From: Dehalococcoidia bacterium
GTDB lineage: Bacteria; Chloroflexota; Dehalococcoidia; Bin125
Length of the DNA stretch: 64,000 nt
Assembly (NCBI GenBank): GCA_965261225.1
Contig: OZ253456.1
Coordinates: 1,190,099 to 1,254,098 of the forward strand
Reading direction: 5' to 3'
The translations under genes and the position numbers were made by a program. Each line of letters opens with the position of its first letter. Within the stretch, counting starts at the first letter, position 1. Of the stretch, positions 10,101 through 43,700 are shown one piece after another. Under the pieces are notes generated by a model. It saw nothing but the letters and a program-made list of their open reading frames with translations, ran no database searches and was not told where the DNA came from.

Positions 10101-10622
10101 CGTCGCCTTGCATGCGACCTGCTTACGCTCCTCGCACGGCCGTGATTTCCGCAATCAGAGACGGAGCGCAAACGTCAACTCCAAGGTTCTTGATGTTGTC
10201 CAGTTTGCTGGGCCGTGCTGTCCTCTGTTGCGTACACGTCAGTTGTAGCTCTCCTCGCGCACTGCCAATTGCACTCTTGCTCTCACGACGCGCAGATGTG
10301 GGTGACCAGGTCGACTTCGCTTGCCTGATCGTCGTTCTGCTCGACCCCGTGTGCGAGAACTGTTTTGGCCTGCTGTGAGTGTTGCTGATGGCGTCCAGGC
10401 GCCCAGGCGAGCAGGCGAAGCGGCCGGCACACTGGTCCTCCGTGCCGTGCAGGACCATGTCCACGATGTCTTCAGCTACTCCGGTTTCGCGGAGATCGTT
10501 CCAATCCACGGCGACGGCGCGGCAGCGCTGGAGACGTGCTAGCCGTCGTCGATTGCGGAACCGTGGTAGCCGCCAGGATTCGGCTGTCGCGGGAATACTC
10601 ATGGCGTATTGCTGCTGTGCTG

Positions 10623-24558: not shown

Positions 24559-24995
24559 GGCCTGTTCACATAGAACGCTCGCGACGGCCAACCCCAAACC
24601 AAGCCCTGCGCCGCAGCTCCGTCCCTGCCGAGCCACGCTACCATCAGAACGCATGAGCGCTTGAAAGACGGAGCCAATGTCAACCCCACACCCAACCACA
24701 ACCCGGTACGCCCCCGACCACCCGCCAACCCCCGCTCACCGCGTGATAACCCAGCGAACCGTTTCGTCCCAATCCGCACAGATCCGAACAAATCCGAACA
24801 GCAACCGACCAGAAATCCCTCAACCAGACTGAAAAAACCTGAAAAAACCTGAAAGAGCTGAAACACGATCTCCAGCAATGCACGGGAGATCGCCCCCGAA
24901 CCACCCCAGAAAAAAAGTCCCACCTGAAACCTGAAACCGCCAATGACCACAACACACGCCTCGACCGAACCCATCCCCGGCTGTGTGAACAGGCC
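24559..24995. repeat. Intergenic segment bounded by the inverted 12-mers GGCCTGTTCACA and TGTGAACAGGCC, with internal A-rich direct repeats (CTGAAAAAAC x2, CTGAAA x4, ATCCGAACA x2)
   Basis: The bounding inverted repeat is at 24559-24570 and 24984-24995. CTGAAAAAACCTGAAAAAACCTGAAAGAGCTGAAACAC lies at 24829-24866 and CCTGAAACCTGAAACC at 24922-24937. The region ends 36 bp upstream of the GMC oxidoreductase ATG, which has a strong GAGGAGG Shine-Dalgarno sequence. Confidence 0.4.
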
Positions 24996-25031
24996 CTAGC
25001 CTGACCAGACCCTGCTGAGGAGGTCACAGCG

Positions 25032-26543
25032 ATGTACGACGACATCATCATCGGTGCGGGTTCGGCTGGGGCGGTGATTGCGGCAAGACTCTCGGAGGAT
25101 CCCGGACGCCAAGTGCTGTTGCTCGAGGCGGGACCCGACTACAGCCGGATTGAAGATCTGCCGCGCGATCTGGTCAGGCCCTGGATCTCGTGGGTGGATC
25201 ACGATTGGGGCTTTAGCGCCAATGCACGCCACGGTCGCGAGCTTCGCATGCATCGCGGCAAGGTCATGGGCGGCACCTCCGCCATCAATGGGGCAGTCGC
25301 GCTGCGCGGCGTTCCCGCCGACTTCGACGCGTGGGTCGAACTGGGCTGTGATCAGTGGTCGTACGAAGACGTGCTGCCCTGGTACCGCAAGCTCGAGTCG
25401 GATCCCGAGGGCGGCGACTTCCACGGCTCGCGCGGCCCGGTCCCGATCGAACGCAGCCCCAAGGACTCGTGGCAGCCGCTGCACCGCGCCTTCTACGACG
25501 CCTGCCGCGAACGAGGATTCGATGATGTCTGGGATCACAACCGCCCCGATGCGACCGGCGTCGGACCGTGGCCACGGAACCGCCGCGAGGGCCTGCGGAT
25601 CTCGACCAACATCGCCTACCTGATGGGCATCCGCGACCGGGAACATCTGACTATCCGTCACGGAGTGCTGGTCGACCGTGTGCAGCTCGAACATGGTCGC
25701 GCCACGGGTGTCGTGCTTGCGGACGGGAACGTGATCGAAGCGAAGCGAGTGTGTGTCAGCGCCGGCGCTGCCGTGACGCCGGCGATCCTGCTTCGCTCGG
25801 GGATCGGCCCAGCCGAGAAACTGACACCGCACGGAATCAAACAGGTGCACGTGCTACCCGGAGTCGGCGAAAATCTGATCGACCACATCGCGATCGGTGT
25901 AGCGGCATCGGCGAAGCCGGACATTGCCCACGACCCCGCCGTGGTCTTCGAGGTTGGCCTGCGCTACACGGTGCCCGGCAGCGACCTGTTCAATGACATG
26001 CAGATCGCGCTGTCGACAAACTGGGATCCGGAGCACATGCGCGGATTCAGCAATGCACCGCGTGGATATCCGGGCATCAGCTTCGCCGCGATGCTGCAAC
26101 GTCCGTACTCGCGTGGCTCGGTCACGCTGCGCTCGTCCGATCCCGAGGAGCAGCCCAACATCGACTTGAACTATGGCCATCCCGAAGATTTGCGTCGGCT
26201 CATGGAAGCTGCGCGACTCTGCTGGGATCTGATGCACAGCGACCAGATGGCGCCTTATGTCGATGAGATCGTTGCGCCTCAACCTGGGCTGATCGAATCG
26301 GACCTGGCCCTGGCCGACTACGTCCTTAGCGCGGCATCGACGGCGTGGCACATCAGCGGGACCGCGCGGATGGGACAGGCTACGGATCCGTTGGCGGTCA
26401 CCGATCAACAGGGACGAGTCCACGGATTGGACGGCCTGCGGGTGGCCGACACGAGCCTGCAACCGGACATCGTGAGCTGCAACACGAATCTGACCAGCAT
26501 CATGTTCGGCGAACGGATCTCCGACTTCATGCGTTCGGCATGA
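25032..26543 (+). CDS. GMC-family FAD-dependent oxidoreductase (choline dehydrogenase-like)
   Basis: It has the N-terminal FAD fingerprint MYDDIIIGAGSAGAVIAARLSED...VLLLEAGPDY, a GMC signature region (GKVMGGTSAINGAVALRG) and a C-terminal catalytic-domain pattern (HISGTARMG). The Shine-Dalgarno GAGGAGG is 7 nt upstream. Confidence 0.85.
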   Translation: MYDDIIIGAGSAGAVIAARLSEDPGRQVLLLEAGPDYSRIEDLPRDLVRPWISWVDHDWGFSANARHGRELRMHRGKVMGGTSAINGAVALRGVPADFDAWVELGCDQWSYEDVLPWYRKLESDPEGGDFHGSRGPVPIERSPKDSWQPLHRAFYDACRERGFDDVWDHNRPDATGVGPWPRNRREGLRISTNIAYLMGIRDREHLTIRHGVLVDRVQLEHGRATGVVLADGNVIEAKRVCVSAGAAVTPAILLRSGIGPAEKLTPHGIKQVHVLPGVGENLIDHIAIGVAASAKPDIAHDPAVVFEVGLRYTVPGSDLFNDMQIALSTNWDPEHMRGFSNAPRGYPGISFAAMLQRPYSRGSVTLRSSDPEEQPNIDLNYGHPEDLRRLMEAARLCWDLMHSDQMAPYVDEIVAPQPGLIESDLALADYVLSAASTAWHISGTARMGQATDPLAVTDQQGRVHGLDGLRVADTSLQPDIVSCNTNLTSIMFGERISDFMRSA

Positions 26544-26573
26544 TTCCGCACTGATCGCGTGCGGCCCAATTGG

Positions 26574-26906
26574 CTACTCCGACCCGCGCACGGCGCACAC
26601 TGGCACCTCAATGTCCAGCAGCGGCGCGTACTGCTGTCCACCGAAGCAGTCGCTGTCTTCAAGGTCGCCCGACGAGACGGGCCTGGGGATCGAGAACTTG
26701 ATCGCCAGCGCGTTATCACAGTTGAAGAAGAGCACGTCCTCCTCGTGTTGCTTGTAGATCTCCGCGACCAGCTTCTTGTTCAGCACCCCGGAATCGCGTA
26801 CCTGTTCGTACACGTCGACGTCATCGAACATGATGTCGAAGGTCAGCACGAAGGGTCCGGCGTTCTTGCTGCGCACCAGCTTGGTGACCTCCCAGAGCTT
26901 TGCCAT
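26574..26906 (-). CDS. Small conserved protein that co-occurs with AtuA-like proteins (DUF4387-like)
   Basis: The 110-aa ORF lies immediately downstream of the AtuA-like gene on the same strand and has non-repetitive composition (MAKLWEVTKLVRSKNAGPFVLTFDIMFDD...). Confidence 0.45.
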   Translation of the reverse strand: MAKLWEVTKLVRSKNAGPFVLTFDIMFDDVDVYEQVRDSGVLNKKLVAEIYKQHEEDVLFFNCDNALAIKFSIPRPVSSGDLEDSDCFGGQQYAPLLDIEVPVCAVRGSE

Positions 26907-26921
26907 GACGCGCCTCTACCT

Positions 26922-28292
26922 CTATACCGTCGCCATCTGAATGGGGAACATCTCGTAGGGATCAGCCGGTTCGACGACGTGGTTCAGGTTGAACCTGTGA
27001 GTCGCGCCCCGATGCAGTACTGCGGGGCTGTACGGGAACGCCAGGGCGCTGATCAAGCCGTGCCATTCAGGCACCGGGAAATGCAGCGCCAGGTGGTGCG
27101 CGGTTTCGGCCAGTTGACCGGCCAGGTCGGACTCGGGTGCGGTTACCTCGATGATCAGACACACCTCGTGGGCAGGCGTCGTCACCGGCTCCAATGCGCC
27201 CATGACTCCGTCTCGACCGTAGACGCGGAAGAAGACCGAGTAGTGCTCGTCGATCTCCAGGCCGTCGAACGCATCCCTGATCCGCAAGGCCAATCGCTCC
27301 TTCATCCGGCCGAGCCAGTCATCGAGTTGGCGGATGATGATTGGGTCTCTGATCGCCCCGATGATTATGCTCTGGTAACCCGCCAGTTCCACTCCCTCGA
27401 GCTTCACCGTGTAGCGTTCCGCCGGAACCCATCGGCTGTTGGAGACCTTGACGGCCCGGTCCGAGACGGCCTCATAGACCGAATCCGTGGTGTCGAGCAT
27501 CCCCGACGACTCGTACAGGTGGAAGGGATCGGCGTTCTCGTACAGCGTGTGAGAGGCGACGCTCTGCGGCGTGCACCAGAGTTCGTCGGCCGGTGGTTCG
27601 ACGATGAAGTGGTCGTTGCGGACAGTGGCAAACATGCAATCGGGCGACTTTCTCAGAGCCACGGACGCAGCTCCGCACTCCAGGATCTTTGCGGCGTGCC
27701 AGACCGGGCCTTCAGCGAATCCCCGCGCCAGGGGCATGGCTGCAAAGAGCGTGGTGTCGCTGGCTCTGCCGCCGACGATCACCTCTGCGCCATCATCCAG
27801 CGCCCTGGCGATCGGCTCGGCGCCCATCATGCCGACGATGTGCAGGCTCTGGTCGATCACTGCTTCGTCCAGATGCGGCGCCGGCTTGAGCGGCGTGATC
27901 TTGCCCGCTCGGAGTTTTGACTTCAGGTACTCCCGGTCCTGCTCCGAGCGGATCACCGCGAGGTTGAACTGCAGTTCCTCTTCCCTGGCGATCTCCTCGA
28001 CGATCTCCACCGTCCACTGGACATTCAGGTCCCCGCCGGCCGACCCGGCTGAGCCGATGATCACCGGAATGCCCGCCGCTCGCCCGGCCTGGAGGATGAG
28101 CCGGATGTCCCGTTTGACCGCGGTCCGGGGAAAGTTGCTCCTCCCGGTCGCGAGGGCGTCCGGCCCGCCGTCGGTGGTGCCCGCGTCGGCCGCGATGAAG
28201 TGCGGCTCCCATCCCATGGCCCGCTTCAACGACGCTTCCAGGAAGCCGGATCCGATCATCCCCGTCGCCGAAAGCGCTCTGATCTCGTCCAT
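26922..28292 (-). CDS. AtuA-like (DUF1446) family protein
   Basis: The N-terminal MIGSGFLEASLKRAMGW...IAADAGTTDGGP and the overall length of about 455 aa match the acyclic-terpene-utilisation AtuA family pattern. The listed ORF extends 48 nt further to 28340. Confidence 0.6.
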   Translation of the reverse strand: MDEIRALSATGMIGSGFLEASLKRAMGWEPHFIAADAGTTDGGPDALATGRSNFPRTAVKRDIRLILQAGRAAGIPVIIGSAGSAGGDLNVQWTVEIVEEIAREEELQFNLAVIRSEQDREYLKSKLRAGKITPLKPAPHLDEAVIDQSLHIVGMMGAEPIARALDDGAEVIVGGRASDTTLFAAMPLARGFAEGPVWHAAKILECGAASVALRKSPDCMFATVRNDHFIVEPPADELWCTPQSVASHTLYENADPFHLYESSGMLDTTDSVYEAVSDRAVKVSNSRWVPAERYTVKLEGVELAGYQSIIIGAIRDPIIIRQLDDWLGRMKERLALRIRDAFDGLEIDEHYSVFFRVYGRDGVMGALEPVTTPAHEVCLIIEVTAPESDLAGQLAETAHHLALHFPVPEWHGLISALAFPYSPAVLHRGATHRFNLNHVVEPADPYEMFPIQMATV

Positions 28293-28486
28293 GAGGAGTC
28301 TCCCAAATCGCAAATGCCCGAAGTCCCACCGCAGCATCACCAGGGCAGGATTTGCGTCGGAGCATACCGAGTTCTCGTACCGCTCTCAAAGGACTCGACT
28401 ATTAGGGACCACGCCACCCTCGACCCAGACTCCGAACCCTCGTGCTTGCACTCGACATCACGCCAACAGATCGGGGAGGGCGCCGA

Positions 28487-28978
28487 TCATTCTGTCCGGA
28501 CAGATAGCCTCCCTTCCACAAGCCGGTCGCCGTCTGCGTCCACCCAGACGCCGTAGATGCCCATCCGTTGCGCGCCCCCGATGTCGTGCTCCAGGTTGTC
28601 GCCGACCATCCAGGCTTCGGTCGGCCCCACGCCCAGCGCTTCGAGCGAATGCAGGAAGGCTCGCTCGTCCGGCTTCCCGACCCCGAACTCTTCCTCGATC
28701 TGGATGTGGTGGAAGAAGCGGTCGAGGCTGAACCGTTCGATCTTTCGGCGCTGATTCCTGGTCTGGCCATTGGTCAGCAGACCGAGGCAGATGTCCGCCT
28801 CTCGAATCCGCTGGAGCGTGTCGATCACTCCGGGCAGGGGCTTCACCGCCTCCTCCCTGACGACGGTGAAGCGGTCGGCCAACTCGCGACAGAGCCTGCG
28901 CCAGACCTCGTCGGGGTTGCCGTACGAATCGAGGATGGTGTCGTCAAGGTCGAGGAGGAGCGCGTTGGGGAGATCCAT
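28487..28978 (-). CDS. HAD-superfamily hydrolase (subfamily IA)
   Basis: Motif I is LLLDLDDTILD, motif II is LGLLTNG, and motifs III/IV are VGK...MVGDNLEHDIGGAQRMG. The probable start is MDLPNALLLDLDDT. Confidence 0.75.
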   Translation of the reverse strand: MDLPNALLLDLDDTILDSYGNPDEVWRRLCRELADRFTVVREEAVKPLPGVIDTLQRIREADICLGLLTNGQTRNQRRKIERFSLDRFFHHIQIEEEFGVGKPDERAFLHSLEALGVGPTEAWMVGDNLEHDIGGAQRMGIYGVWVDADGDRLVEGRLSVRTE

Positions 28979-29304
28979 GGCGTCTTCGATCGTAGTTGGA
29001 TAGGGGCGGGTGAGATCGAGCCGGGTCGCAAGCACGCCTGCTCGGCGCGGCTCCGGACCTGCCCGATTGCCTCGGACTCGCCGACGAAGTAGCGCAGCCG
29101 TCGTCCGCCCGTGAGTGGGAAACGGTTCGTATCAGGGAATAGCGGAATAGCGGACCACACGATCGAGTGTTAGAAGTCAACGTCAGCGGCGTGTCTGGGG
29201 AACTAGAGGCCCGGCCCACTGGCTAAGCGCTAGCACCGACAACAGTTCATCGGCCCTCAGCGTCTTCACAGGTCAAGCGTAAACGTCAACTCGAAGTTTC
29301 TCGA

Positions 29305-30948
29305 TTAAGTCAAGTTTGGTGGGCCGGACTGGACAAAATCGAGAACCGATGTTTCGTCTCTGGTCACGCCGTCTGAAGGCATTGGAATGGTGTATCTCAA
29401 CGTCACGTCGTCATCGAGGACCTCGATTGATTTGACGAAGTTCCGAATCAGCGCCTTGCGCTCAGGAAACGTTCCCGCTTCGAGGAAGCCGCGGAAGTCG
29501 GACACGTACTCGGCAATCTCGGTGCTGGTCGGGAAGTCGGCTTTGCGCTGCCGCAACTGACGGTCCGCATCTTCCTGGGTGGCGGCGAGTTGATCCTCGC
29601 GCTGGCGCAGCGTGAGGATGCGCGGCGACAACGCCTGCATCGTCAGCTCCGTTGTCTCTAGCGCTTCATAGAGTCGTTCGAGCCGGCTGCGGACACCTGC
29701 CAACTCCGCCTCGATGGCCGTAAGTTGGCCGCCGAGCTCACCCGCCCAGGCGTCGATCTCCTCGGAGACCAGCACGATCAACTCAGTGATCGTCTCATCG
29801 GTCAGAATCCGTCCGAGGATGCGCTCGACAATGCGTGCCTCCACCCGGTCGGCGTTCAGGTAACGAGCGGAGAAGGAGCCGGCCCCTTCGCGCAGCAAGG
29901 TCCTACAGACGTAATAGAAGAAGCGGCCGCTCTTTGCTCCCTGGCCGGTGTAGGGATTGCCACAGATTCCGCAGCGGAGCAAACCACTGAGTAGGAACTT
30001 GCTGCCGACGCGGGCAGGCCGCTGCTTCTTCGGCGCGCGCTCCTGCAATCCCTGCTGGACCTCATTGAACAGTTCCCGCGAGACCAGGGCTTCCCAGGCG
30101 CCCTCGGTCCGTACCGGGTCGGGCTTCTTGTCGCCCGTCGTCGTGCGGCCCCAGATTGCCGTGCCTGTGTAGGCCTCATTGGTCAAGACGTAATGCAGAC
30201 TGTTACGTCGCCAACGCTTCCCCTTATTCGTGATTCCCCGCTCGTTGAGCTCGGCCGCAATCTCCTTCAGCCCAACGCCGCGCAGCGACTTCTCGAAGAT
30301 CTCCTTGACGATCGGACCAGTGTCCGGGTCGACCTGCAGTGTCGGTCGCTCCTTGGCGCCGTCCAGCACCTTGATCCGACGGTAGCCGAAGGGCGCCTTC
30401 GAACTCAAGAAGAATCCGCGCGAGGCGGCCTCGCGCATGCCGCGGGTCACTTCCTGGGCGAGATGCTCGGAATAGAACTCGTCCACGCTCTCGATGCTCG
30501 CCTCCATCAGCTTGCCGGTCGGCGTGTCGTCGGCGTGCTCAGTAACCGAGGTGACGCGGATCCCGCGCCGGCGCAACATCGATTTGAAGGCGACCGCGTG
30601 CTCACGCTTCCGAGTGAAACGAGAGAACTTCCAGACCAGTATCTCCTGCAACGGCGCGTCGGGTTGAGCCGCCTCATCCAGCATCTTGCGAAACTGGGGC
30701 CGGTCGGCGACGCGACCGCTCTCGGCCTCGTCTATGTACTCGCGCTCAATCAAGTAGCCATTCCGCTCCGCGTAGTCGCGAAGGGCGCGCAGCTGCGCCG
30801 CGATAGAGAGGTCGACATCCTGGCGGTCGCTGGAGACGCGGGCATAGAGGGCGGCGCTAAGGGGCGGGACTGCGGGATTCACTGATTGATGCTCTCGTTT
30901 CACGTCGCTGGGATAGGCACGTGAATGATCTGGCGTTCCAATGCTCAT
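29305..30948 (-). CDS. Large serine recombinase (resolvase-type catalytic domain, recombinase domain, zinc ribbon and coiled coil)
   Basis: It has the catalytic N-terminus AALYARVSSDRQ...SIAAQ...L..YA, the recombinase-domain pattern GKRWRRNSLHYVLTNEAYTG, a zinc ribbon LLRCGICGNPYTG...FYYVCR, and a C-terminal coiled coil. The start may be an internal GTG near 30870. Confidence 0.85.
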   Translation of the reverse strand: MSIGTPDHSRAYPSDVKREHQSVNPAVPPLSAALYARVSSDRQDVDLSIAAQLRALRDYAERNGYLIEREYIDEAESGRVADRPQFRKMLDEAAQPDAPLQEILVWKFSRFTRKREHAVAFKSMLRRRGIRVTSVTEHADDTPTGKLMEASIESVDEFYSEHLAQEVTRGMREAASRGFFLSSKAPFGYRRIKVLDGAKERPTLQVDPDTGPIVKEIFEKSLRGVGLKEIAAELNERGITNKGKRWRRNSLHYVLTNEAYTGTAIWGRTTTGDKKPDPVRTEGAWEALVSRELFNEVQQGLQERAPKKQRPARVGSKFLLSGLLRCGICGNPYTGQGAKSGRFFYYVCRTLLREGAGSFSARYLNADRVEARIVERILGRILTDETITELIVLVSEEIDAWAGELGGQLTAIEAELAGVRSRLERLYEALETTELTMQALSPRILTLRQREDQLAATQEDADRQLRQRKADFPTSTEIAEYVSDFRGFLEAGTFPERKALIRNFVKSIEVLDDDVTLRYTIPMPSDGVTRDETSVLDFVQSGPPNLT

Positions 30949-31028
30949 TGGAATAGTGTTCCGAACATACTATCCGATACGCCGGACCAGATGCTGAAAC
31001 AGACCTCACACACCACGCGTCATGCTGT

Positions 31029-31400
31029 TTAGGGTTGTCGAGTCACAACTCGGCCAGCTACAGGAGTGGATTCCCGCATCAGCGGGAGTAATAGACTTGG
31101 CGGGCTATTCGGCTTGTCAGCAGCCCGTTGGTCCGGCGGGATAAGGTCTGTTCCCAAGGATGTGAACGGGTTGATCACCGTGACGCCGCCATACTCCTGG
31201 CCAGCGTTCAAGTCCTCGGAGTAGACCGCGTCGCAATACGAAATCTGGTAGCGCTGGCTAATCACTGTGGCCGAGCGGAACAGCTCGATCGTCAGCGCCT
31301 GCACATGTCGCTTCGATAGTTCCTCAACAAACAGGATCGCAGCGTCGTGCGACAGTCTACCTGGTCGGCTCGGTCGGGTGACGTGGTAATAGAACTCTTG
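31029..31400 (-). CDS. Possible PIN-domain (VapC-like) protein
   Basis: The segment LLDSVDIVLSVQVLQEFYYHV...ISYCDAVY...GGVTVINPF loosely fits PIN-domain spacing. The listed ORF (to 31586) overlaps the higB remnant on the opposite strand, so the extent and even the reality of this gene are uncertain. Confidence 0.3.
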   Translation of the reverse strand, partial: QEFYYHVTRPSRPGRLSHDAAILFVEELSKRHVQALTIELFRSATVISQRYQISYCDAVYSEDLNAGQEYGGVTVINPFTSLGTDLIPPDQRAADKPNSPPSLLLPLMRESTPVAGRVVTRQP

Positions 31401-31511
31401 CAGAACCTGGACAGATAGGACGATGTCGACTGAGTCCAACAGACCGTCGGCGGCGCTGCCGGAGTGGTGCATAGCGCTTTGCCAGACGCCAAATGGAGGT
31501 ACGCTCGGCGA

Positions 31512-31791
31512 ATGATCCTGCGCATTCGGCACCGCGGAATGCGGCATTTCCACCGTCGCGGCGACCCAAGCGGATTGACTCCGCACGAGATCCCAGGAAT
31601 TCGCCGTATCGTGACAGCACTCGAAGTAGCGTCCGGACCAGGGGGACTCGGACGCGCCTACCTACCGATTGCATCCACTGAAAGGAAGCATGTCAGGATT
31701 GTGGACCGTTGACGCTTCCGCGAATCGCCGCATGATCTATCGCTTCGGAGAGAGAGACGTCACGGACGTTGACCTGCTCGACTACCACTGA
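31512..31791 (+). pseudogene. higB: higB-like toxin gene (copy 1) with a 1-nt insertion frameshift
   Basis: The N-terminal frame gives MILRIRHRGMRHFHRRGDPSGLTPHEIPGIRRIVTALEVASGP. The +1 frame gives LHPLKGSMSGLWTVDASANRRMIYRFGERDVTDVDLLDYH*. Both halves align with the intact copy at 32098-32376. The junction (around 31655-31668) carries 28 nt where the paralog has 27. Confidence 0.6.
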
Positions 31792-31802
31792 GGGAGAGTC
31801 CG

Positions 31803-32093
31803 ATGCCGATGAAGAACCCTTGTCATCCAGGCGAGCTGATCCTGTACGACTGGATCGGCGGTCTCAATCTGACCGTGGAGGCAGCCGCGGAGCATATGCA
31901 GGTGTCAGCCCAGTCGTTGGAGGACATCTGCCAGGGCAAGGCGCCGGTCACAACGGAAATGGCCGTGCGCCTCTCCAAAGCGCTCGGCAGCACACCTCGG
32001 TTCTGGATCCAACTACAGGCCAGCTACGACGCCTCCCAGGCCGACCAAATGCTCGACCAATTCAACATCAAGCGAATCGAACGGGCCGCCTGA
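31803..32093 (+). CDS. higA: HigA-family antitoxin (XRE-type HTH), copy 1
   Basis: The sequence MPMKNPCHPGELILYDWIGGLNLTVEAAAEHMQVSAQSLEDICQGKAPVTTEMAVRLSKALGSTPRFWIQLQASYD is the classic HigA N-terminus. The ribosome-binding site GAGGGAGAG precedes the ATG. Confidence 0.75.
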   Translation: MPMKNPCHPGELILYDWIGGLNLTVEAAAEHMQVSAQSLEDICQGKAPVTTEMAVRLSKALGSTPRFWIQLQASYDASQADQMLDQFNIKRIERAA

Positions 32094-32097
32094 GCCT

Positions 32098-32376
32098 GTG
32101 ATTACACACTTCCGACATCGCGGGGTGCGGCGTCTGCACGAGCGGGGCGACCAAAGTGGAGTCTCCGCTCGGCACGTCCGGAGGATCCGGCTCATTCTGC
32201 AGCAGCTAGACGTTGCGACGGGACCACAAGACATCGAGTTGCACTCGCTGGACTTGCATCCACTGAGGGGCGATCTCGCGGGACATTGGGCGCTGCGCGT
32301 GAGTGGTAACTGGCGGATCACGTTCCGTTTCGAAGAAGGTGATGTCCGCGATGTGGACTTGACCGACTACCATTAG
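32098..32376 (+). CDS. higB: HigB toxin (RelE/ParE superfamily, plasmid-maintenance killer protein), copy 2; GTG start
   Basis: The sequence (M)ITHFRHRGVRRLHERGDQSGVSARHVRRIRLILQQLDVATGPQDIELHSLDLHPLRGDLAGHWALRVSGNWRITFRFEEGDVRDVDLTDYH matches the HigB consensus throughout. Confidence 0.8.
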   Translation: MITHFRHRGVRRLHERGDQSGVSARHVRRIRLILQQLDVATGPQDIELHSLDLHPLRGDLAGHWALRVSGNWRITFRFEEGDVRDVDLTDYH

Positions 32377-32397
32377 GACGGCGAATGGAGACTAGCA

Positions 32398-32688
32398 ATG
32401 CCGATGTACAATCCGCCGCACCCGGGGGAAGGTGTTCTGGGCTTGTGCCTGGAACCGTTTGACCTGTCGGTCACGGACGCCGCGGCGCACCTTGACTTGG
32501 ACGAGGGGTATCTGGCCGACCTCTGCGCGGGGCGAGAGCGGATTACGGCTGACCTGGCAATCCGGCTGGAGCAGGCGTTCGGCGGCACCGCCGACAATTG
32601 GATGCGCGTGCAAGCGGCGTACGATCTCGCCCAGATGCGCCTGAAGTCAGACCACATCCAGGTCAAACCAATCGGCTCAGCAGCTTGA
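32398..32688 (+). CDS. higA: HigA-family antitoxin, copy 2
   Basis: The sequence MPMYNPPHPGEGVLGLCLEPFDLSVTDAAAHLDLDEGYLADLCAGRERITADLAIRLEQAFGGTADNWMRVQAAYDL is a paralog of copy 1. Confidence 0.8.
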   Translation: MPMYNPPHPGEGVLGLCLEPFDLSVTDAAAHLDLDEGYLADLCAGRERITADLAIRLEQAFGGTADNWMRVQAAYDLAQMRLKSDHIQVKPIGSAA

Positions 32689-32790
32689 CCACTGGGTCAG
32701 ATTGCAGACCGCCTACGACCTCGTCCAATCCGCAAGACAGCCTGCGACTTCAAGCGGATCAAGCGCGTAGCCTGACCATTCCGACACTGC

Positions 32791-33759
32791 CTAAAGCTGC
32801 TCCGGGGGAATGCCGTGCCAAGACAGTAAATCACCGGCGTCGGCATCTCTGACATCCTTCAGTTTGGGCGGATTGTCTTGATCATCGAGTGCTTCGTCCA
32901 ACTGACTCTGCGTAAGGCCAACGACGCCCTGCGATTCTTCGCGACGGCCACTATATTCGCCTTCTCTGTTGACTGACCAGGCACTAAACCGGGTCTCCGA
33001 CAAGACAGATTGACGTATGTTCGCACCACGGAAAGAGGCTCCGCCGAAAAAACAGCGACTAAGGTCCGCGTAACTTAGATTCGCGTCCCCTAAGTTGGCC
33101 CGCCTAAAGAACGCATCGTGAAACAGTACTCTCTCGAGATTCATTTCACGCAAGTCCCATCCCTCGAAGAATCTATCACTCAGATCGATCTGAAATTCTC
33201 GTCTCGCTTCGAGTGCCAGTTCAGCATCAGTACGGGACCCAATGAGTTTCAGCGCGGCAGCTTCATCCTCACGCAGCTTCGTGCCGAAACCGCCGTCGAA
33301 TGTGACGGCCGTAACGAGCTTTGAATCAGGAGGGTTTCGAATGAATGCAGCGAGCAAGGTCACCGTATCGACGTAATAGCGCTCTGGAACCTCCCGCGCT
33401 AGTGCACCCAAAGTGTGGATTGCACCCAGACGAACCGCATTCGAGTGATGCCCGAGCATTTCTGCGGCAGCCTGAAACCTCTGATTCGCGATCGCCTCTT
33501 GCGCTGCATCAACACTCTTCTGCGTTGCTTTGACTTGTCGCTCAGCCACCCAGCCCCTCCAGATTGCGAGCGGTAGCGCCAGTAAACCACCCATCATCAG
33601 CATGACGTTGCGAACCGTCGTGCTCAGGCTCTCACTCGTGCCGTTTGGCGTCGTGGAGAGGTCGCCCCAGAAGCCCGCTGATAGCCCTGCTCCGACACCC
33701 AGCACGACGACAACAGCGACGCTGAACCAGAATGTCCCTGACCTCAATAGGCGCCTCAT
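32791..33759 (-). CDS. Membrane-anchored pentapeptide-repeat protein
   Basis: Two N-terminal hydrophobic helices (FWFSVAVVVVLGVGAGLSAGFW and VMLMMGGLLALPLAIW) are followed by pentapeptide repeats (RANLGDANLSYADLSRCFFGGASFRGANIRQSVLSETRFS). The start codon overlaps the stop of the upstream restriction-modification gene as ATGA. Confidence 0.7.
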   Translation of the reverse strand: MRRLLRSGTFWFSVAVVVVLGVGAGLSAGFWGDLSTTPNGTSESLSTTVRNVMLMMGGLLALPLAIWRGWVAERQVKATQKSVDAAQEAIANQRFQAAAEMLGHHSNAVRLGAIHTLGALAREVPERYYVDTVTLLAAFIRNPPDSKLVTAVTFDGGFGTKLREDEAAALKLIGSRTDAELALEARREFQIDLSDRFFEGWDLREMNLERVLFHDAFFRRANLGDANLSYADLSRCFFGGASFRGANIRQSVLSETRFSAWSVNREGEYSGRREESQGVVGLTQSQLDEALDDQDNPPKLKDVRDADAGDLLSWHGIPPEQL

Positions 33760-36700
33760 CGGTCAGCCTCCGAGATCTTCGTGATACCCGCCGCCCGACG
33801 AGCCACTTCTGAGAACCATGCCACCTCGGACACCTCCAACCCCCTCCCCAACACCTTCGACTCACGGTAGCTCAGCCACTTCTTTAGCACCTGGTAGCCG
33901 CCTAGCCGATACTCCCACACCTCGATCGGCACGTCTTTCCAATACGCTCGATCGTTCAGATACACATCCACCATGTCTCCCCGACGCACCACCTTGCCCT
34001 GGCCGGGCATGACGGCTTGGTTGGTTCCGAAGTGGCCCCAGCCGGCGCTGATTTTGAAGTCGTTGGGTTGCATCGGGGCGCCGTCGGTGGTGGTGGGGAC
34101 GGCGATGCTGGTGTCGAGGAGGTCGCTGACGTCGGACTCGGTGTCTAGCAGGCGGGCGAGTCGGCGGCCTCGGGCGGCGGACTCGGCCAGGGCGTCGGCG
34201 CTGTCGGGCAGGGGGATGCGGGGCCAGCCCATGCGCAGACCGCCGGCGTTGGCCTCGCGGTAGGCGGGGTCGTGCAGCGTGGCGAGGACGTGGTGGAAGA
34301 GGTCCTCAGGCTCGGCGCTCATGGACTCGATGTAGGCCTGCGCCCGCTCGCTCAGGTTGGCGGTGCGCTTGACGCCGTTCACTTCTTCGCCGAACTGGTC
34401 GTCTCGGAGGTAGAGGGGGACGCATGTCGCGCTCCGGTCGAACAGGTCGAGACAACCAATCGTCGATATCACTTGCGCTGGTGACCACTCGCGACGCGGC
34501 TTCTGTTGCGAAACTATCGCCAAGTTGCCGGGAAACACGTGCGGTCGATACTCAGGTCGCGGTCGATCCAATAGTCCCGTCTTTTCCGACCAGTAGAGCC
34601 AACGGACATCAAACGGACGGTAGGCGTAGCGAATGAAGTCAGAGTCAGCCGCTTCAACGAGTTCGCTGATCCGCTTCCTGAGATCATCCAAGTTGATGTC
34701 TACGACCAGGGAGTCACGGCTCGTCTTTACGCCAGGGAAGTAGGCAGGAAACAGATCTAGCAGCGAGGGCCACTCGAACCAGTCGTCACTCACTGCGACA
34801 GGAGAGAAAGGCAAGCCCAAACCAGCCATCGGCCTGACCGACCCATATAGCGCTGAAGGATCCACCCCAGCAGACTCATCCAGTTCCCGCGACTTGCTGG
34901 TTCCCCACAGCTCACGCCAATCGATCTGTTCCGCGCTCTGATGCGACTCCTTACGTACTAATGTCGCGATGGCCGTCCCCACCTGGATGCCGACCGGATT
35001 GTCGGACGTGGAGAAGATGCTGGGATCGGAATCGCCCTCTGGGGTGAGCTTGCCGGTTCGGTATTTGTCTCCGTTGAGGTTGTCGATTCGGACGATGTCG
35101 AAGGCGTCGAGGTAGCGCTGTCTCATGCCAGGGAAGGAGAGGCCGTCGAGCCAGGAGTAGTTGCTGATGAAGCAGACGATGCCCTGGCCGGTCTTCTCGG
35201 CGATGCGGCGCTCGGCCATGCGGAAGAAGCGGACGTAGAGGTCGTTGAGACCCTGGCCCTGCGGTTTGGGCAGGTCGGCGCCGGGAACTTGCTTAACGGT
35301 GCGGTAGGCGTCGGTCAGGTTGCGCTCTTCGTCTACCTCGGCGACGCCGGGGAAGCCGTTGTAGGGCGGATTGCCGAGCACGACCAGGATTGGGCGCTGC
35401 TGCTTGACCTCGGTGGCGTCCTTGCGCTCCTGTTCGAGTTCGGGGAAGGGCAGCGGCTTGGTCGTATGCGGCTCCCAGCCGGTCAGGGCGTTGGTCAGGA
35501 AGACTCCGGCGCGCTGGCTGGGCGCAAGTCCCGCGCCCATCTGCTCCAGCGCCAGCCCGATCTCCAGGTGCGAGACAACCAGAGGGGCGGGCATGATCTC
35601 GAATCCGAAGACCCGCGTCGCGGCGGCCTGCCGGACCGACTCGGCCCAGGCCGCCCCACCGCCCGATGACTGCTCCGTCTCGGCAATCCGGCGCAGCGTC
35701 TCGACCAGGAAGGCGCCCGTTCCGCAGCACGGGTCGAGCACGTAGACGCGCTCATCGGCCAGTCCCTTGGCGATACCGAGGTCGTCGCGCAGCGCCCGGT
35801 CGACACGCGCCACCATGTAGCGGACCACCTCGCGCGGCGTGTACCAGACGCCGAGGTCCTTGCGCAGCTTCGGGTCGAAGGCTTCCAGGAACGGCTCATA
35901 GAAATACTGCACCGCTTCACCCTCGCTGAAGCGCTTGAGGAAGGCCTCACGGTCAACCCGCTCCAACGCAGCCTCGGTCCAGTCCAGCACGTCGTTCAGC
36001 GCCAGCCGTTCCAGCCGGCCGGGATCGGTGAGCTGGTGGAACAGCATCCGCAGCACGGGCGCGCGCAGGTAATCGCGCGTGTCCTTCCAGCGGAAGCGGT
36101 CCGCTGATTTGCTGGATGGGCCGCCCCGCGCCCAGAGCACCCAGGCGGCGAAAATCCCATAGAACAGCGTCTGCACGAGAGTCGAGCGGAAGAACTCCTC
36201 GCCGCGCTCGTCCTCGAAGGACATGCCGAGCGCCTGCTCGATGGAGTCGCGAATCGGTTTGAGCGAGTCCTCTTCCTCCTCCGCCTGTTCAACCCGCTGC
36301 AACGCATCGCGGGCATACGAGGCGAGCAGTCGGGCGAGGTCGCGCGGCTCGGAAATGGTCGAGCGGTGCGACATCACCCGCAGCAGATACTCGCCCAGCG
36401 AGACGCCGTGTCGATTGGCGGCGGTCACACGATGCTTCAGAAGGTCGTCGAATGCTGCAACCGTGTTGGCCGCGCTGTAGCGTTCCAGCGTCGCCTTTGA
36501 GCCGCTGTTGTCCTGTCCGACCAGCGCGAACTCGCGCAGATTCGTGACCAGCACGAGCTTGTGCTTCTGCCAGTACGTATCGACCTGCTCGGAGGCGATT
36601 AGCTCATCGAGGTCGGCGTCAGCGCCCTTGACCTCGACAACGCCGCGGTCCGGTCCGGTCGCAAGCGCTTCGCCGGCGCTTGAGAAGAACCCCAGGTCCG

Positions 36701-36902
36701 GTTGATGGCCACCCTGTTCGGAGTAATGCACAACGGCGCGGACTCGATGCGCGAGTTGAGCGCCGATCGCATTGAACAGATTCGCCAGCGCGGTGTAGTG
36801 CGATAGCTCCGGCGTTCCGACGAGGCTGACCTCTGCGATGGCGTCGAGGTACGCCTTGACCGCTTGCCTGAGTTCATTCACTGTGGTGACCCAGCTTCCC
36901 AA
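33756..36902 (-). CDS. Type IIL/IIG restriction-modification enzyme, MmeI-like (N-terminal PD-(D/E)XK nuclease, gamma-class N6-adenine methyltransferase, C-terminal target-recognition region)
   Basis: The N-terminus has D...EVK (HQPDLGFFS...GVVEVKGADADLDEL). The methyltransferase has the region VWYTPREVVRYMV, motif I VYVLDPCCGTGAFL and motif IV LGNPPYNGF. The length is 1048 aa with no helicase motifs. Confidence 0.75.
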   Translation of the reverse strand: MGSWVTTVNELRQAVKAYLDAIAEVSLVGTPELSHYTALANLFNAIGAQLAHRVRAVVHYSEQGGHQPDLGFFSSAGEALATGPDRGVVEVKGADADLDELIASEQVDTYWQKHKLVLVTNLREFALVGQDNSGSKATLERYSAANTVAAFDDLLKHRVTAANRHGVSLGEYLLRVMSHRSTISEPRDLARLLASYARDALQRVEQAEEEEDSLKPIRDSIEQALGMSFEDERGEEFFRSTLVQTLFYGIFAAWVLWARGGPSSKSADRFRWKDTRDYLRAPVLRMLFHQLTDPGRLERLALNDVLDWTEAALERVDREAFLKRFSEGEAVQYFYEPFLEAFDPKLRKDLGVWYTPREVVRYMVARVDRALRDDLGIAKGLADERVYVLDPCCGTGAFLVETLRRIAETEQSSGGGAAWAESVRQAAATRVFGFEIMPAPLVVSHLEIGLALEQMGAGLAPSQRAGVFLTNALTGWEPHTTKPLPFPELEQERKDATEVKQQRPILVVLGNPPYNGFPGVAEVDEERNLTDAYRTVKQVPGADLPKPQGQGLNDLYVRFFRMAERRIAEKTGQGIVCFISNYSWLDGLSFPGMRQRYLDAFDIVRIDNLNGDKYRTGKLTPEGDSDPSIFSTSDNPVGIQVGTAIATLVRKESHQSAEQIDWRELWGTSKSRELDESAGVDPSALYGSVRPMAGLGLPFSPVAVSDDWFEWPSLLDLFPAYFPGVKTSRDSLVVDINLDDLRKRISELVEAADSDFIRYAYRPFDVRWLYWSEKTGLLDRPRPEYRPHVFPGNLAIVSQQKPRREWSPAQVISTIGCLDLFDRSATCVPLYLRDDQFGEEVNGVKRTANLSERAQAYIESMSAEPEDLFHHVLATLHDPAYREANAGGLRMGWPRIPLPDSADALAESAARGRRLARLLDTESDVSDLLDTSIAVPTTTDGAPMQPNDFKISAGWGHFGTNQAVMPGQGKVVRRGDMVDVYLNDRAYWKDVPIEVWEYRLGGYQVLKKWLSYRESKVLGRGLEVSEVAWFSEVARRAAGITKISEADR

Positions 36903-37020
36903 CCAACGACACCAACTTCGACATCAATAGACACTTTACTCCCGGCTCTCTAGCTCTCTCCCTTGTCAGTCGAGAGTTGACTTCAGTCGCAATCGTGGGG
37001 CATTTGGTGCAGAGGAACTA

Positions 37021-38035
37021 GTGTCCTGAGTCGGGAATACGGTTGAGATATGCGGCGAGGTTGTCGAAGATCTGGTCGGCGGTCTTGTGTCAGACGAAGG
37101 GGCGCGGATGTTCGTTCCAGCCGGCGACCCAGCGTTCGATGTCGCCGGTCAGGTCAGACACGCGACAGTGGGCGCCGCGCCGGAGCCATTTGGTGGTCAG
37201 TTCGGCGAACCAGCGCTCAACCAGGTTCATCCAGGAGGTGGGCGTGAAGTGAAAGCGGAAGCGGGGATGACGCTGGAGCCAACGCTGGATCTCGGCGGTG
37301 CGGTGGGTGGCCACGTTGTCCAAGACGACATGCACGGCGAGTTCGTCGGGTACCTGCTCGTCAATCAGGTCGAGGCAGCGCCGGAACTCGCGGGCCCGGT
37401 GTCGCGGAGTCAGGTCGGCGATCACGTGTCGCGAGGCGATATCCAGCGCCGCGTAGAGATTGGTGGCCCCGTGACGCACGTAGCCGTGAGTCTGACGGCG
37501 AGGCGCCGCCGGGCAGCATCGGCCGCGTCGCAGCGGTGCGGTCAAGCGCCTGGATCTGGGTTTGCTCGTCCACGCACAGCACGACCGCCGCGTCGGGCGG
37601 GTCGACCAATGGGTCGCGTGGCGCGGTTGCTGTTCCAGCGTCTTGACGATCACCGCTTCCACCTGCTCATCGCCGATCGTGCGGGGCGCGTCGGGACGCG
37701 GCTCATCGCTCAGCCCATCCAGCCGCCGCTGGGCGAAGCGTCGCCGCCACTTGCCGGCCGTGACCGGATGGCAACCGAGCGCCGCGCCGATCTCAGTATG
37801 CGCCTGCCCGGCCGCCGCCGCGAGCACAATCCGGCTGCGTAGCGCCAAGGCCTGCGCCGTGCTCGGTCGGCGCGCCCAGCGCTCCAGCGTCTCTCGCTCC
37901 TCCGCACTCAACACGATCGTCACCGTCGGGCGGCCCTGTCGGGTACGCATGACACTCCAGCGAAAGCCCCGGACGGCCAAACCGGCTCCATCAACACCAG
38001 ACCCCGTTGTTCATCGCATTAGCGACTCAGGACAC
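37021..38035. mobile_element. IS630-family insertion sequence, degenerate (about 1.0 kb)
   Basis: The terminal inverted repeats are (C)TAGTGTCCTGAGTCG at 37018-37033 and CGACTCAGGACACTG at 38023-38037. The flanking dinucleotides are TA and TG, consistent with IS630 TA-target duplication allowing one mismatch. Confidence 0.65.
37090..37980 (-). pseudogene. IS630-family transposase with an internal deletion and frame change
   Basis: The N-terminal HTH region (RSRIVLAAAAGQAHTEIGAALGCHPVTAGKWRRRF) and the C-terminal DDE region (HVVLDNVATHRTAEIQRWLQRHPRFRFHFTPTSWMNLVERWFAEL) are present. The central ALVLCVDE...QALDRT segment is readable only in another frame (ORF 37361-37609), and about 50 aa are missing ahead of it. 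Confidence 0.7.
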
Positions 38036-38139
38036 TGGGGAGTATCCCGTTCCGGGCGGGGCGACCGCCCCACCCAGACACCCCGTGTATCGGGACTTCT
38101 CCGATTGCTGGCCGGGGCCTGCGATGACGCATGATCGGG

Positions 38140-41100
38140 CTACCCGTCCGGTCCGACGACGGTAAACTCCAACCCGTTGGAGAGCTTCCTGCCGTCACCG
38201 GTGCAGATGGCCCCCTGGTCGTCGCAGTCATTGGTGACGGGAAGGACGATGGTCACGTTCCCGTTGGCGTGCGGTTGCACAGTGATTCGCCACTGGATGT
38301 TGCTAGGCTTTTCCACCCGCTGCGCTTTCTTCACCGTTCCCCCAGTCACCGTGAACGCATCAAACTTCAGGTTCCTGAAGCTCAGCGCGACCTCCTCGCT
38401 GAAGCGGATTTCGAACGTGAATACGTCAGTGCCGTTGTGAATAGTGGGATTGTTCTCCAAGCTGACGGTCAGCGGGATGAGAGCCGCCGTCACCGCGTCC
38501 GTTGCGGCGCTGGTCAAAGACTCCGCGTTGCTCCGGTCGTCGATGAAGTTCACCCGTACCTGAATGGTCTGTCCCTGCTCGCTGGACGTGAGGGTGTAGG
38601 CGGAGCCCGTGGCTCCGGCGATGTCCGACCCACCGGCAACCCACTGGTAGGTGAAGGTGGCGCCAACGAGCCCGTCAGCGTCAGCGATGCCGGAGGTGTT
38701 CGCCGTCAACGTCTCGCCAACCTGGGCGGTGCCGATGATTGTCGGCGCTGCGGTGGCGGGGCTGTTGGGCGCGGCGTCTACTGCTGCCGTCGCCGCGCTG
38801 GTCAGCGTCTCCCCGTTGTCGGCGTCGTCGGTAAAGGACACCTTAACCTTGATGGTCCTGCCCTCGTCGTCGGCAGCCAGGGAGTAGGTAGAGCCCGTCG
38901 CGCTTGTGATGTCCGAGTCCGAGCTACCGTCGTTTCTTATCCACTGGTAGCTGAAGGACACGTTGCTCAGCCCGTCGGCGTCGGCGATGGCAGAGGTGTC
39001 CGCCGTCAATGTCTCCCCGACCTGGGCAGCGCCGCTGATGGCGAGAGCCCCGGTGGCCGGGCTGTTGGCTACCTGTTGCTGGACAGCAAAGCTGACCGAA
39101 TCCGTCGCCGCGCTGGTCAGGGATTCTGCGTACCCGCCCCTGTCGGTGAAGGCGACCCGGACCTTGACGATCTTTCCCTCGTCGGCTGCAACCAAGATGT
39201 AGGTAGAGTCGGTTGCGCCCGTGATGTCAGCGTCTGCGCTCCCATCGTTGGTTACCCATTGGAACCGGAACTGCACCTGGTCCAGACCGTTTCCGTCCTC
39301 TATTCCCGTCGTATCGGCGGTGAAGCTCTCTCCGACCTGCGCCGTGCCATTGATGACAGGCGCGCCACTGGCCGTCACGTTGTCCGGCCTGGCCTGTTTG
39401 CCCAACGAAGATTGGTTCGTGGAGCCCACTTGCCTGAAATCGGACCAATCCGAGGAGCTGTGAGCGTTTCTGGCACGTACCTGGAACCAGTGCGTGGAGC
39501 CGGGGTCCAGTTTGCTGATGATGCCCCCCGCCCCGTAGAACGCGATCTCAACGCCGTCTCCCGGCAGGTCCATCCACTGGCCGTTCCGGAACAGCTGCAC
39601 GTCGTAGGAATCGGCCCCCGGCACATCGTTCCACTCCAGGTCTACGCCCCCGACGAAGACCGCAGTCCCGACCGGCCGATCCGGAGTGTCCGGAGCGCTG
39701 ACCGGCGGCGGCGGCGGTCCGGCTATCTGCAGGGCGGGAGCAACCGTCAGAGTCCCTCCGTCCGCGGTGCAAAGCGCCCCCACCTCGGTACACGCCCGGT
39801 TCAGCGGCGTGAGTATCGACACCGGCCCGTTCCCCGAGGGCTGAAGCGTCAGATCCCAGAGGGTCTTGAGTCCTTCCACCTGCTCTGCGCCGGTCACCGT
39901 CCCACCGAACACCGTCAACGCGTGGTCGCGCATGTCCTCGGGCGTTATCTCCACGTCCTCGCTGAAGGCCATCCGCAGCGTGAACGCGCTCGACCCGTCA
40001 TGGGACAACGGCGGGTTCTCGAAGGCTGCCATCAGTGGCTCGGCCGCGGTCGCCATGGACGCAGCGGCTTTGGTAATCCAGAGCTGGTACACCCTCCGAT
40101 CGAAGGCGGTATGCCCTTCGACTCTAGCGTTCGGGCCAATGACCCAGATCGACCTGTAGCGATTCTGTCTGCCCAACTTGAGGTCGAACCTGTCCATCTC
40201 GAGGTCGAACTGAACGCCGGCCAGGTCCGGGTCCTCGTCGATAGCATCCAGCCGGACCGTCTCGGTGCGCATCAGGCGCACGTCCGGGTCGGGTGAGTTC
40301 TTCTCCACAGACACCGTTACCGCGGTCGTGCCGGAGGACACCCTGATCTTGAAGGTGGCTGCATTCGTGCCCAGGTGAAAACCCGGTGTGAACGAGAGCA
40401 GCGTCCCGTTGACCGGCGTCACCGTGAGCGTCTTCAGTCTCACATCCGCCGCCGGGCCGCCGCCACCTTCTCCCCGACGGACCGTCACTCTGTAGGTCTT
40501 GGTCTCGTTGCCGTCCGCCGAGGTGACGGTCACCCTCCAGGTGGTGGAGCCTTCCGGCACGTCGAGCTTCGCCGTGGCGCCGCCGTCCCAGCGGTCGCCG
40601 GCGGTGAAGGTGCCGGCGGGACCGGTGACGACGACCGTGGCGCCCGTGGCGTAGGGCGCTGCCTGCATGGTCAGCTCACTGAAGGAGTGGCGCCCGTCGT
40701 AACTGTAGGTGTCTGACCCTATCCCGCCGAGCCAGATTCCGCCCTTCGTCGTGAGCCACAGCTTCGACAGCCGCGCATCGTCCTCCTTGCCCACCCAGCG
40801 CTTGATTTCCTGCCCCAACGCATCGCCGGCAGCGGTGCAGATGGGGTGGCCGGAGGAACTGCAGTCCAGGGTTTGCCGCACGCGGATGCGGACCGGATCC
40901 CCCGAGCTGGGCGTGATCGTCATCGTGAAGTTCCGCTTGCTGCTGCCCACCGCGGCGAGGTCGCTCTTGGTCCCGTTCTTGATCCCGACTGCCCCGTCGA
41001 GGTTGTCGATCGAGTCGTCGGAGATGTCCTTGTTGAACTTGAGCGTCACCGAGAACGCCGTGCTCCCGTCGTGGGACGACGGCAGGTTCTCGATCCGCCC

Positions 41101-42198: not shown

Positions 42199-42351
42199 CC
42201 CAGCCTCCCGTTCCTCATCGACACGCATGCACGGGCTCGGACGCTGTGCACGCACGAGAAGCCGGACCACGCTTGAGCGGGCCCAGACGACTTCCGCCCG
42301 CGGAATCGCATCCTGCACGCGTGACACCGGCGAGGCGAGGCCCAGAGTTCC

Positions 42352-42378: not shown

Positions 42379-42512
42379 TCTTGTTATGCACGCTTTATCT
42401 CCCTTATTCGAGCGTTTACGACCGATATCAACACATCTCTGCGTGGTGTAGCAGTGTATCCACTGCCCAGGGAAATGAGCAAATCACGAGATCCGCGAGG
42501 CGCCCAGCGTGC

Positions 42513-43646: not shown

Positions 43647-43700
43647 GTAGATACCAGATGTGTAGGTACCGAGTTGTTAGCTAAACCGTGTATAACTGCA

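Follow-up and report, generated by a model that had tools for sequence, protein, structure and literature searches.

The window considered here, meaning the whole stretch of DNA that was analyzed, is 64 kb of chromosomal DNA from an uncultured Dehalococcoidia bacterium (Chloroflexota). It contains an 8.7-kb block of genes that begins with a large serine recombinase (LSR), continues through a PIN-like open reading frame (ORF), a higB pseudogene, higA, higB and a second higA, a pentapeptide protein and a restriction-modification enzyme, and ends with a dead insertion sequence (IS) of the IS630 family. A preliminary description of the sequence had listed these genes and read them as a defense and addiction island lying between the recombinase and the IS element; all of them are present, as judged from profile matches and from comparison with the related locus L090. 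Comparison with relatives turns this vaguely bounded island, without a visible pair of attachment (att) sites, into a mapped one, with a single exact recombinase junction, an edge that proves false and a slot in which defense genes are swapped.

The relatives compared include a closed sibling genome of 3.64 Mb (L083), a same-species genome in the form of a multi-contig assembly (L009; contig accession CAXXUV010000008.1), and a contig with 2x coverage (L082/L001; ERZ25068833 ctg54849_2x). More distant relatives (L002-L017) have only AtuA-DUF4387 in common with the window and are uninformative on boundaries. The features on which the argument turns are the following, with window coordinates and strand.

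29305..30948 (-), large serine recombinase, a 547-aa ORF with Resolvase, Recombinase and Zn_ribbon_recom domains
29296..29347 (-), 52-bp imperfect palindrome, att-like, with left arm GGTTCTCGATTTTGTCCAGT, spacer CCGGCCCACCAA and right arm ACTTGACTTAATCGAGAAAC on the LSR strand
29316..29322 (-), core CCACCAA; 29322 is the start of homology with L009, and 29318 the end of homology with L090
29275..29322 (-), 48-nt repeat unit (DRb), which starts with the right arm of the palindrome
10164..10229 (-), decayed copy of the 48-nt unit (DRa; the unit itself at 10164-10211) together with a decayed left arm
37021..38035 (-), dead IS630 with 22-nt terminal inverted repeats (37020-37041 and 38015-38036) and a transposase remnant (37090-37950)

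The Recombinase Gene and Its Junction

The LSR ORF is intact in the window strain and encodes the domains by which large serine recombinases are recognized. Matches to PF00239 (Resolvase, E 1.6e-31), PF07508 (Recombinase, 8.8e-24) and PF13408 (Zn_ribbon_recom, 1.5e-13) are all above cut-off, a PHROG integrase family is matched at E 3.6e-110, and the catalytic serine motif (YARVSSDRQ) and the zinc-ribbon cysteines (CGICG..YYVC) are both retained. The true start is likely a GTG codon, which would give a protein of ~525 aa. The closest NCBIfam model is CcrB (E 2.4e-43), but assignment of the enzyme as a Ccr was rejected, its score of 148.6 bits being far under the equivalog cut-off of 900. No second Resolvase-domain gene is found in the window, where the neighbors of the LSR are the PIN-like gene and higBA, and no recombination directionality factor was identified.

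The position of the recombinase edge emerges from comparison with L009, in which the HAD-AtuA-GMC-sulfotransferase genes that flank the LSR in the window are 94-96% identical. At the place occupied by the LSR in the window, L009 has an intact tRNA-Ala(GGC) gene, and beyond the flank it also has two sortase genes and formate dehydrogenase, none of them present in the window. Homology between the two sequences begins at CCACCA (window 29322-29317), a sequence that in L009 is the 3' end of the tRNA-Ala and in the window encodes the Pro-Pro of ..VLDFVQSGPP. The LSR locus of L090, 96.9% identical to that of the window, diverges at 29318, within the same CCACCA core. These comparisons identify the LSR edge as a true and exact site-specific boundary, with L009 supplying an empty-type site. 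The LSR lies exactly on this junction, in keeping with the earlier proposal that it is the likely integration or excision enzyme. Divergence is locally raised at this point: the 48-nt unit is 73% identical between window 29275-29322 and L009 8808-8855, and the flank is 89% identical over its first 451 nt and 96% identical further out.

The C-terminus of the recombinase is set by this junction. The conserved protein stops at ..VLDFVQSGPP (29317), and the final three codons and stop (29305-29316) are flank DNA, the TAA stop codon (29305-29307) lying three codons into the flank shared with L009. The LSR family comprises more than 4000 homologues at E<=1e-30, all listed ones being at least 71% identical, and among the 120 cluster representatives compared conservation extends up to GPP and is followed by unrelated tails of 1-70 residues; the conserved gene therefore ends at the crossover region, with the flank supplying the stop codon. 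The tails were classed by sequence pattern, the DNA itself being inspected for L091 and L090 only. In L091 (1414-4562) a member of the LSR family faces a second LSR (52% identical) in convergent orientation, and the two ORFs have an overlap of 175 nt that spans the shared core CCGGCCCACCAAC. Of the 120 tails, 51 fit an antisense-partner pattern like that of L091; 15 representatives fit a pattern resembling an antisense tRNA T-arm, and seven fit an antisense LSR-remnant pattern, as does the window site. The L090 locus (11566-11662) has a 105-nt antisense tRNA T-arm-like fragment, bordered by 8-nt repeats (GGCCCACC), between the LSR core and a second GGCCCACCA with a decayed 48-nt unit. As a collection of many natural pairs of LSR and core site, the family could interest those mining for serine integrases.

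The left arm of the palindrome consists of LSR codons, and the right arm is complementary to it at 16 of 20 positions. The 48-nt unit that starts with the right arm is also found directly after tRNA-Ala(GGC) in L009, L087, L088 and L089. Read antisense, the unit resembles an LSR 3' end (..VLDxVQ..), a likeness accounted for by the convergent LSR pair that L091 has over the same core. The decayed copy DRa (82% identical to DRb over 51 nt, E 1e-6 in a self-search of the window) lies 19 kb to the left and has the look of an older island junction. A search of the whole window with the 20-nt arm, allowing up to 5 mismatches, returned sites at 29.3 kb and 10.2 kb only.

Half-sites were analyzed on the assumption that the center of dyad symmetry lies between GGCC and CACC. 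With that center, both LSR-type arms have GGAC at positions 10-13 and TCGAGAACC at 18-26, and the tRNA-Ala arm and the right arm of L090 have GGAC at 10-13 and TCGAACC at 14-20; the outer motif TCGA(G)AACC is ~4-6 bp closer to the center in the latter two than in the LSR arm. The half-sites of attB and attP are known to differ by a shift of ~5 bp toward the center in the outer (zinc-ribbon) motif (Rutherford et al., 2013; PMC3783163). By this measure the sites of L009 and L087 would be B/P-type hybrids, that of L090 P/B-type and that of the window P/P-type, the last being the arrangement expected from tandem accretion of a new element beside an older one.

The Reciprocal Junction, the IS630 Edge and the Nature of the Island

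The reciprocal junction, in which tRNA-Ala is joined to the 48-nt unit, lies outside the window and was found in the source population and two sibling genomes (L087-L089). Orthologues of the sortase that neighbors tRNA-Ala in L009 occur on the source contig (96%) and in the sibling genome (95%). In both of these, what comes after tRNA-Ala is the 48-nt unit and next the giant surface-protein genes (1916-1920 aa, 1826-2226 aa) rather than HAD. A third genome, L089, shares this arrangement of tRNA-Ala and 48-nt unit, its surface-protein gene being truncated. In the closed sibling genome the tRNA-Ala gene is at ~1,842,920 (-) and the LSR at 2,089,166-2,090,545 (+). Across the 64-kb window itself there are no tRNA genes (ARAGORN), no matches to the tRNA-Ala 5' pattern, and no Rfam families at gathering threshold.

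At the IS630 edge no att-like partner was detected, and no further copy of the arm occurs in 29.3-64 kb. Local alignments of 29036-29350 with the IS630 flanks (36903-37025 and 38030-38145), both direct and inverted, gave scores within the range of shuffled controls, which agrees with the earlier remark that no direct-repeat att pair could be seen. The IS630 transposase matches NF033545 (5.7e-47), and the element is dead: compared with the intact 364-aa copy in L090, the gene has lost ~155 bp internally and contains an in-frame stop. There are no other IS630 copies in the window, and the exact transposase is on record on two contigs only. The sequence past its outer end differs among relatives. 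L083 is collinear with the window through IS630 into the cadherin-like gene (92.6-97.8% identity over 19296-40492). L082/L001, which is 99.99% identical to window 19306-38041, has DUF3179-SnoaL-AhpC-ZnuA...rpsN beyond the outer end of IS630 instead, which represents a structural variant present in a minority or else a join made in assembly at the IS; its housekeeping region past 38036-38041 also includes RNase T. L090 has a third, unrelated gene of 580 aa at this position. In L084 the block has no IS630, and a gene for a 1753-aa UvrD/DEAD helicase comes next. The LSR-side flank, a DUF1214-sulfotransferase region with or without the HAD-AtuA block, is common to the window, L082, L083, L084 and L090. 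The constancy of this flank and the variability of the other argue that the block has not moved as a unit. The outer end of IS630 is most simply explained as a point of exchange, a rearrangement scar left by recombination between IS copies.

These observations bear directly on whether the block is a self-contained integrative or excisable island of ~8.7 kb with the LSR and IS630 as its ends. Synteny with relatives does break at both edges, at 29318-29322 and at the outer end of IS630 (38036-38041), as such an island would have it. Nevertheless this explanation is very improbable, and the IS element does not hold up as the second edge: the IS630 side has neither a repeat nor an att-like arm, only its outer flank changes while one and the same locus adjoins the LSR in all five sequences, L084 carries the block with no IS630, L083 continues through it at 92.6% identity, and the reciprocal junction is, in the closed sibling genome, ~247 kb away and inverted. 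The dinucleotides beside the IS, always TA on the inner side and on the outer side TA in L082 and L090 but CA in the window and L083, fit exchange between IS copies. The block is not a self-contained excisable element. With moderate confidence it is regarded instead as the cargo end, next to the recombinase, of a DsiB/CcrB-like genomic island that is part of an array of islands associated with tRNA-Ala(GGC). In the sequence of events proposed, the LSR would have used site-specific recombination at CCACC to join island DNA to the tRNA-Ala site, successive elements would have accreted at that site, and a later rearrangement would have separated the two junctions. Because of that separation the island could no longer leave as a small circle, despite the intact LSR ORF. 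Given the phage-type module at the right end of the window (described below), the LSR-bounded island may be much larger than 8.7 kb.

Several points weigh against this interpretation. The partner junction is absent from the window, and in the closed sibling genome it is ~247 kb off and inverted, so that simple insertion is not seen directly. By half-site spacing the window site looks attP-like, with two P-type arms, rather than a clean attR; tandem accretion would account for this, but is not known of canonical phage LSRs. Copies of the 48-nt unit, the L009-window pair included, are just 73-83% identical although the outer flank is ~95% identical. The accessory genes of the Dehalococcoides islands considered below, DsiA, ParB and Mom (also RecF), are absent here. 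Two further explanations address some of the same observations. One makes the LSR the integrase of a much larger prophage-like element, or integrative and conjugative element (ICE), running from 29.3 kb to past the right end of the window, with the defense block as its integrase-proximal accessory region. The stretch from 29.3 to 64 kb has no second att arm, ends in a phage-type DNA module at 54-64 kb (helicase, DUF6094 methylase, SSB, RecE/Cas4-like nuclease and Rad52-like annealase) and contains a tyrosine recombinase and giant surface-protein genes in between, and the tRNA-side junction in the source population likewise leads into giant surface-protein genes. A step in guanine-plus-cytosine (GC) content from ~0.62 to ~0.68 at 44 kb, however, suggests separate origins, the sibling junctions, 247 kb apart and inverted, are too far apart for one element without later inversion, and no structural or conjugation genes were seen; a single large element is considered unlikely.

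The other explanation dispenses with insertion altogether: the LSR, or recombination between similar sites, would have inverted a chromosomal segment of ~247 kb with the LSR site at one end and the tRNA-Ala site at the other, and the two states would be represented by L009 and the window. Inverting the sibling segment between the cores gives exactly the L009 order of tRNA-Ala, 48-nt unit and HAD, and both sites have the same core and right arm. Against this, no LSR orthologue from the ten nearest clusters was recorded on the L009 or L089 contig, and even a decayed copy would probably have shown up, since the frameshifted LSR copy of L083 was recorded; the result is indecisive in that the L009 assembly consists of multiple contigs. 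The lack of an LSR cluster member on the L009 contig favors absence of the island from L009, and hence insertion followed by rearrangement, subject to the same reservation about the assembly, and inversion without insertion appears improbable. A related proposal concerns the enzymes themselves. The window LSR would belong to a large Chloroflexota family with the crossover core in its own last codons, each event rewriting the C-terminal tail and stop, and it may still act on its own site and the inverted tRNA-Ala site ~247 kb off, flipping the segment rather than excising an island. This proposal is held to be distinctly unlikely.

Island formation of the kind favored here, in which insertion at tRNA-Ala(GGC) is followed by accretion and rearrangement, has a precedent in the same class. 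The ORF of DsiB in Dehalococcoides overlaps its att site, its C-terminal tail and stop vary, and its islands form tandem arrays with direct repeats (McMurdie et al., 2011; PMC3146451). The likeness is one of layout and published description. As in the ssrA islands of Dehalococcoides (PMC3146451), a CcrB-like LSR of ~540 aa lies at the extreme edge of the island, its ORF overlaps the att site with the flank setting C-terminus and stop, a tRNA-like gene is targeted at its 3' end, the cargo is strain-specific and accessory, and tandem arrays are marked by repeats, here the 48-nt unit at 29275-29322, at 10164-10211 and beside tRNA-Ala in L087-L089. The differences are that the target is tRNA-Ala(GGC) rather than ssrA; that the LSR has the same direction as the tRNA and sits at the tRNA-distal end, whereas dsiB converges on ssrA; that the repeat is 48 nt and ~80% conserved rather than 20 bp; and that the cargo consists of defense and toxin-antitoxin genes rather than reductive dehalogenases. 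The principle published for Dehalococcoides, an LSR ORF ending in its own att core and accretion at a tRNA-like gene, would then also hold in uncultured Dehalococcoidia, with tRNA-Ala as target and defense genes as cargo.

Two other groups of elements offer partial parallels. Staphylococcal cassette chromosome (SCC) elements, with CcrA, CcrB and CcrC, share with this locus the top NCBIfam match (CcrB), tandem site-specific islands at one site and accessory cargo that includes restriction-modification; they differ in having a pair of recombinase genes where a single one is found here, and in host and target (orfX/rlmH for SCC). Serine integrases of phages and ICEs (phiC31, Bxb1, A118/LI and SPbeta SprA) have the same three-domain architecture and a dyad-symmetric site of ~50 bp, and, with the center assumed above, the outer motif would be shifted toward the center in the host-type (tRNA) arm, as described for them (PMC3783163). 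Unlike here, their attP lies outside the int ORF and attL and attR share a 2-bp core only; at this locus the P arm is coding sequence and the 48-nt unit recurs at junctions. Defense islands beside recombinases are commonplace. What is unusual is that the core lies exactly inside the ORF, that L091 has a convergent LSR pair (with its tail pattern in many relatives), and that the junctions are split and inverted.

The Defense and Addiction Cargo

The genes between the recombinase and IS630 are the following.

31029..31586 (-), PIN-like ORF, with a weak PIN match (E 3.4e-3, under the Pfam cut-off) and its conserved part at 31131-31472
31512..31788 (+), higB-1 pseudogene, in which a frameshift near 31636-31652 divides between two frames what is an intact 92-aa orthologue in L090
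31803..32093 (+), higA-1 antitoxin (TIGR02607, 7.9e-28), intact
32098..32376 (+), higB-2 toxin (PF05015, 2.4e-14), intact
32398..32688 (+), higA-2 antitoxin (TIGR02607, 3.8e-23), intact
32689..33794 (no strand), variable cassette slot, with the higA stop on one side and the final ~12 codons of the restriction-modification gene on the other
32791..33759 (-), pentapeptide protein of 322 aa, with two membrane helices at the N-terminus and the pentapeptide repeats at the C-terminus
33756..36902 (-), Type IIG single-chain restriction-modification enzyme of 1048 aa (N6_Mtase and Type_ISP_C; PADLOC REase_MTase_IIG)

The earlier view of the block as accessory defense and addiction cargo is borne out by its absence at the same site in the same-species genome L009 and by the variable defense cargo that related LSRs head; the same gene order was not found as core genome in relatives without the recombinase. 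LSR relatives at 84-97% identity are always at the outer edge of variable defense or toxin-antitoxin cargo, next to at least two different chromosomal flanks. More distant LSR relatives adjoin a different chromosomal flank, and their cargo includes SLFN/AlbA_2, an MmeI-type enzyme, a KAP NTPase, a PLD-helicase and several toxin-antitoxin pairs. In the window no known multi-gene defense system was found, PADLOC matching the Type IIG protein only.

Toxin-antitoxin pairs such as higBA stabilize the DNA that bears them. The gene order higB-higA occurs twice in the block, with the first toxin frameshifted, and the second pair is predicted to be a complete mRNA-interferase toxin with its antitoxin, whereas higB-1 and the PIN gene are decayed. 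The PIN-like ORF is homologous to PIN ORFs located just upstream of related LSRs (76% to L084, 53% to L085) and is truncated at the N-terminus, without 16-40 residues of its relatives.

The preliminary description had assigned the restriction-modification enzyme to Type IIL. That it is a single-chain enzyme is supported, and it falls within Type IIG (PADLOC REase_MTase_IIG, 7.6e-94, profile positions 2-486 covered), the IIL subtype, which is defined by methylation of one strand only and cleavage at a fixed distance, being a biochemical property not readable from sequence. The product is predicted to combine in one chain a nuclease-like motif (PD-x21-EVK at residues 68-92), an N6-adenine methylase (NPPY at residue 511) and, for target recognition, a Type_ISP_C domain. 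In its methylase core the enzyme matches DrdV (7lo5, 1.8e-41), LlaGI and LlaBIII, and a PDB sequence search with the first 330 residues gave no match. It resembles MmeI/DrdV and the Type ISP enzymes LlaGI and LlaBIII in methylase core and Type_ISP_C domain, with the Type IIG profile covering the N-terminus, but it differs from MmeI in that the Pfam MmeI N-terminal and helical domains are without match. Membership in Type ISP was rejected, there being no helicase or Mrr module. By homology, the enzyme would methylate a host motif and cut incoming DNA that is unmodified.

The region from 32689 to 33794 behaves as a cassette slot for defense-type genes. It is cleanly replaced in relatives, by DUF4365 in L083, by ApeA-HEPN in L084, and by a C5 DNA methylase with HATPase_c_3 in L090; the occupant in the window is the pentapeptide gene. 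The ATG of this gene overlaps the stop of the upstream restriction-modification gene, an arrangement of translational coupling, and its GC content (0.568) is the lowest in the block. The protein belongs to a large, widespread family without defense annotation, and a role as a DNA-mimic regulator is speculation. The slot beside the Type IIG gene is a place to seek uncharacterized defense genes, such as this membrane-anchored pentapeptide protein.

Flanking Chromosome

The GC content is ~0.60-0.65 until ~44 kb and ~0.68 after. On the recombinase side, the HAD hydrolase gene is without, at window 28872-28886, ~175 nt that are found in L009 (9258-9433) and is probably a pseudogene. L084 and L090 lack the HAD-AtuA-DUF4387-GMC oxidoreductase block (window 24354-29287) that separates the LSR junction from the DUF1214 gene, and in L002 (8192-14431) the AtuA block is flanked by two tRNA-Val(TAC) genes. 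This block may be a mobile metabolic cassette in its own right.

To the right of the defense block, a tyrosine recombinase gene (42513-43646, -) lies between inverted repeats of 600 nt (41807-42400 and 43679-44287, 74% identical), which are the 5' ends of two divergent surface-protein genes. The region 41807-44287 looks like an invertible or shufflon-type locus for surface-protein variation. Farther on, 54116-63535 encodes, all on the (-) strand, a SNF2/ResIII-type helicase, a DUF6094 methyltransferase, SSB, a RecE/Cas4-like PD-(D/E)XK nuclease and a Rad52-like annealase. This is a phage- or ICE-like DNA metabolism module, and mobile DNA continues to the right of the block.

Exact look-up of the 1395-aa cadherin-like protein returned no record. 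A 2710-aa fn3/cadherin-like gene (45368-53500) contains tandem repeats of ~620 nt that are ~90% identical (46779-50434), and other giant cadherin-like genes occur at 10623-15664 and 38140-42327. A sulfation cluster (sat/cysC and sulfotransferases) at 18881-23182 adjoins the giant cadherin-like genes.

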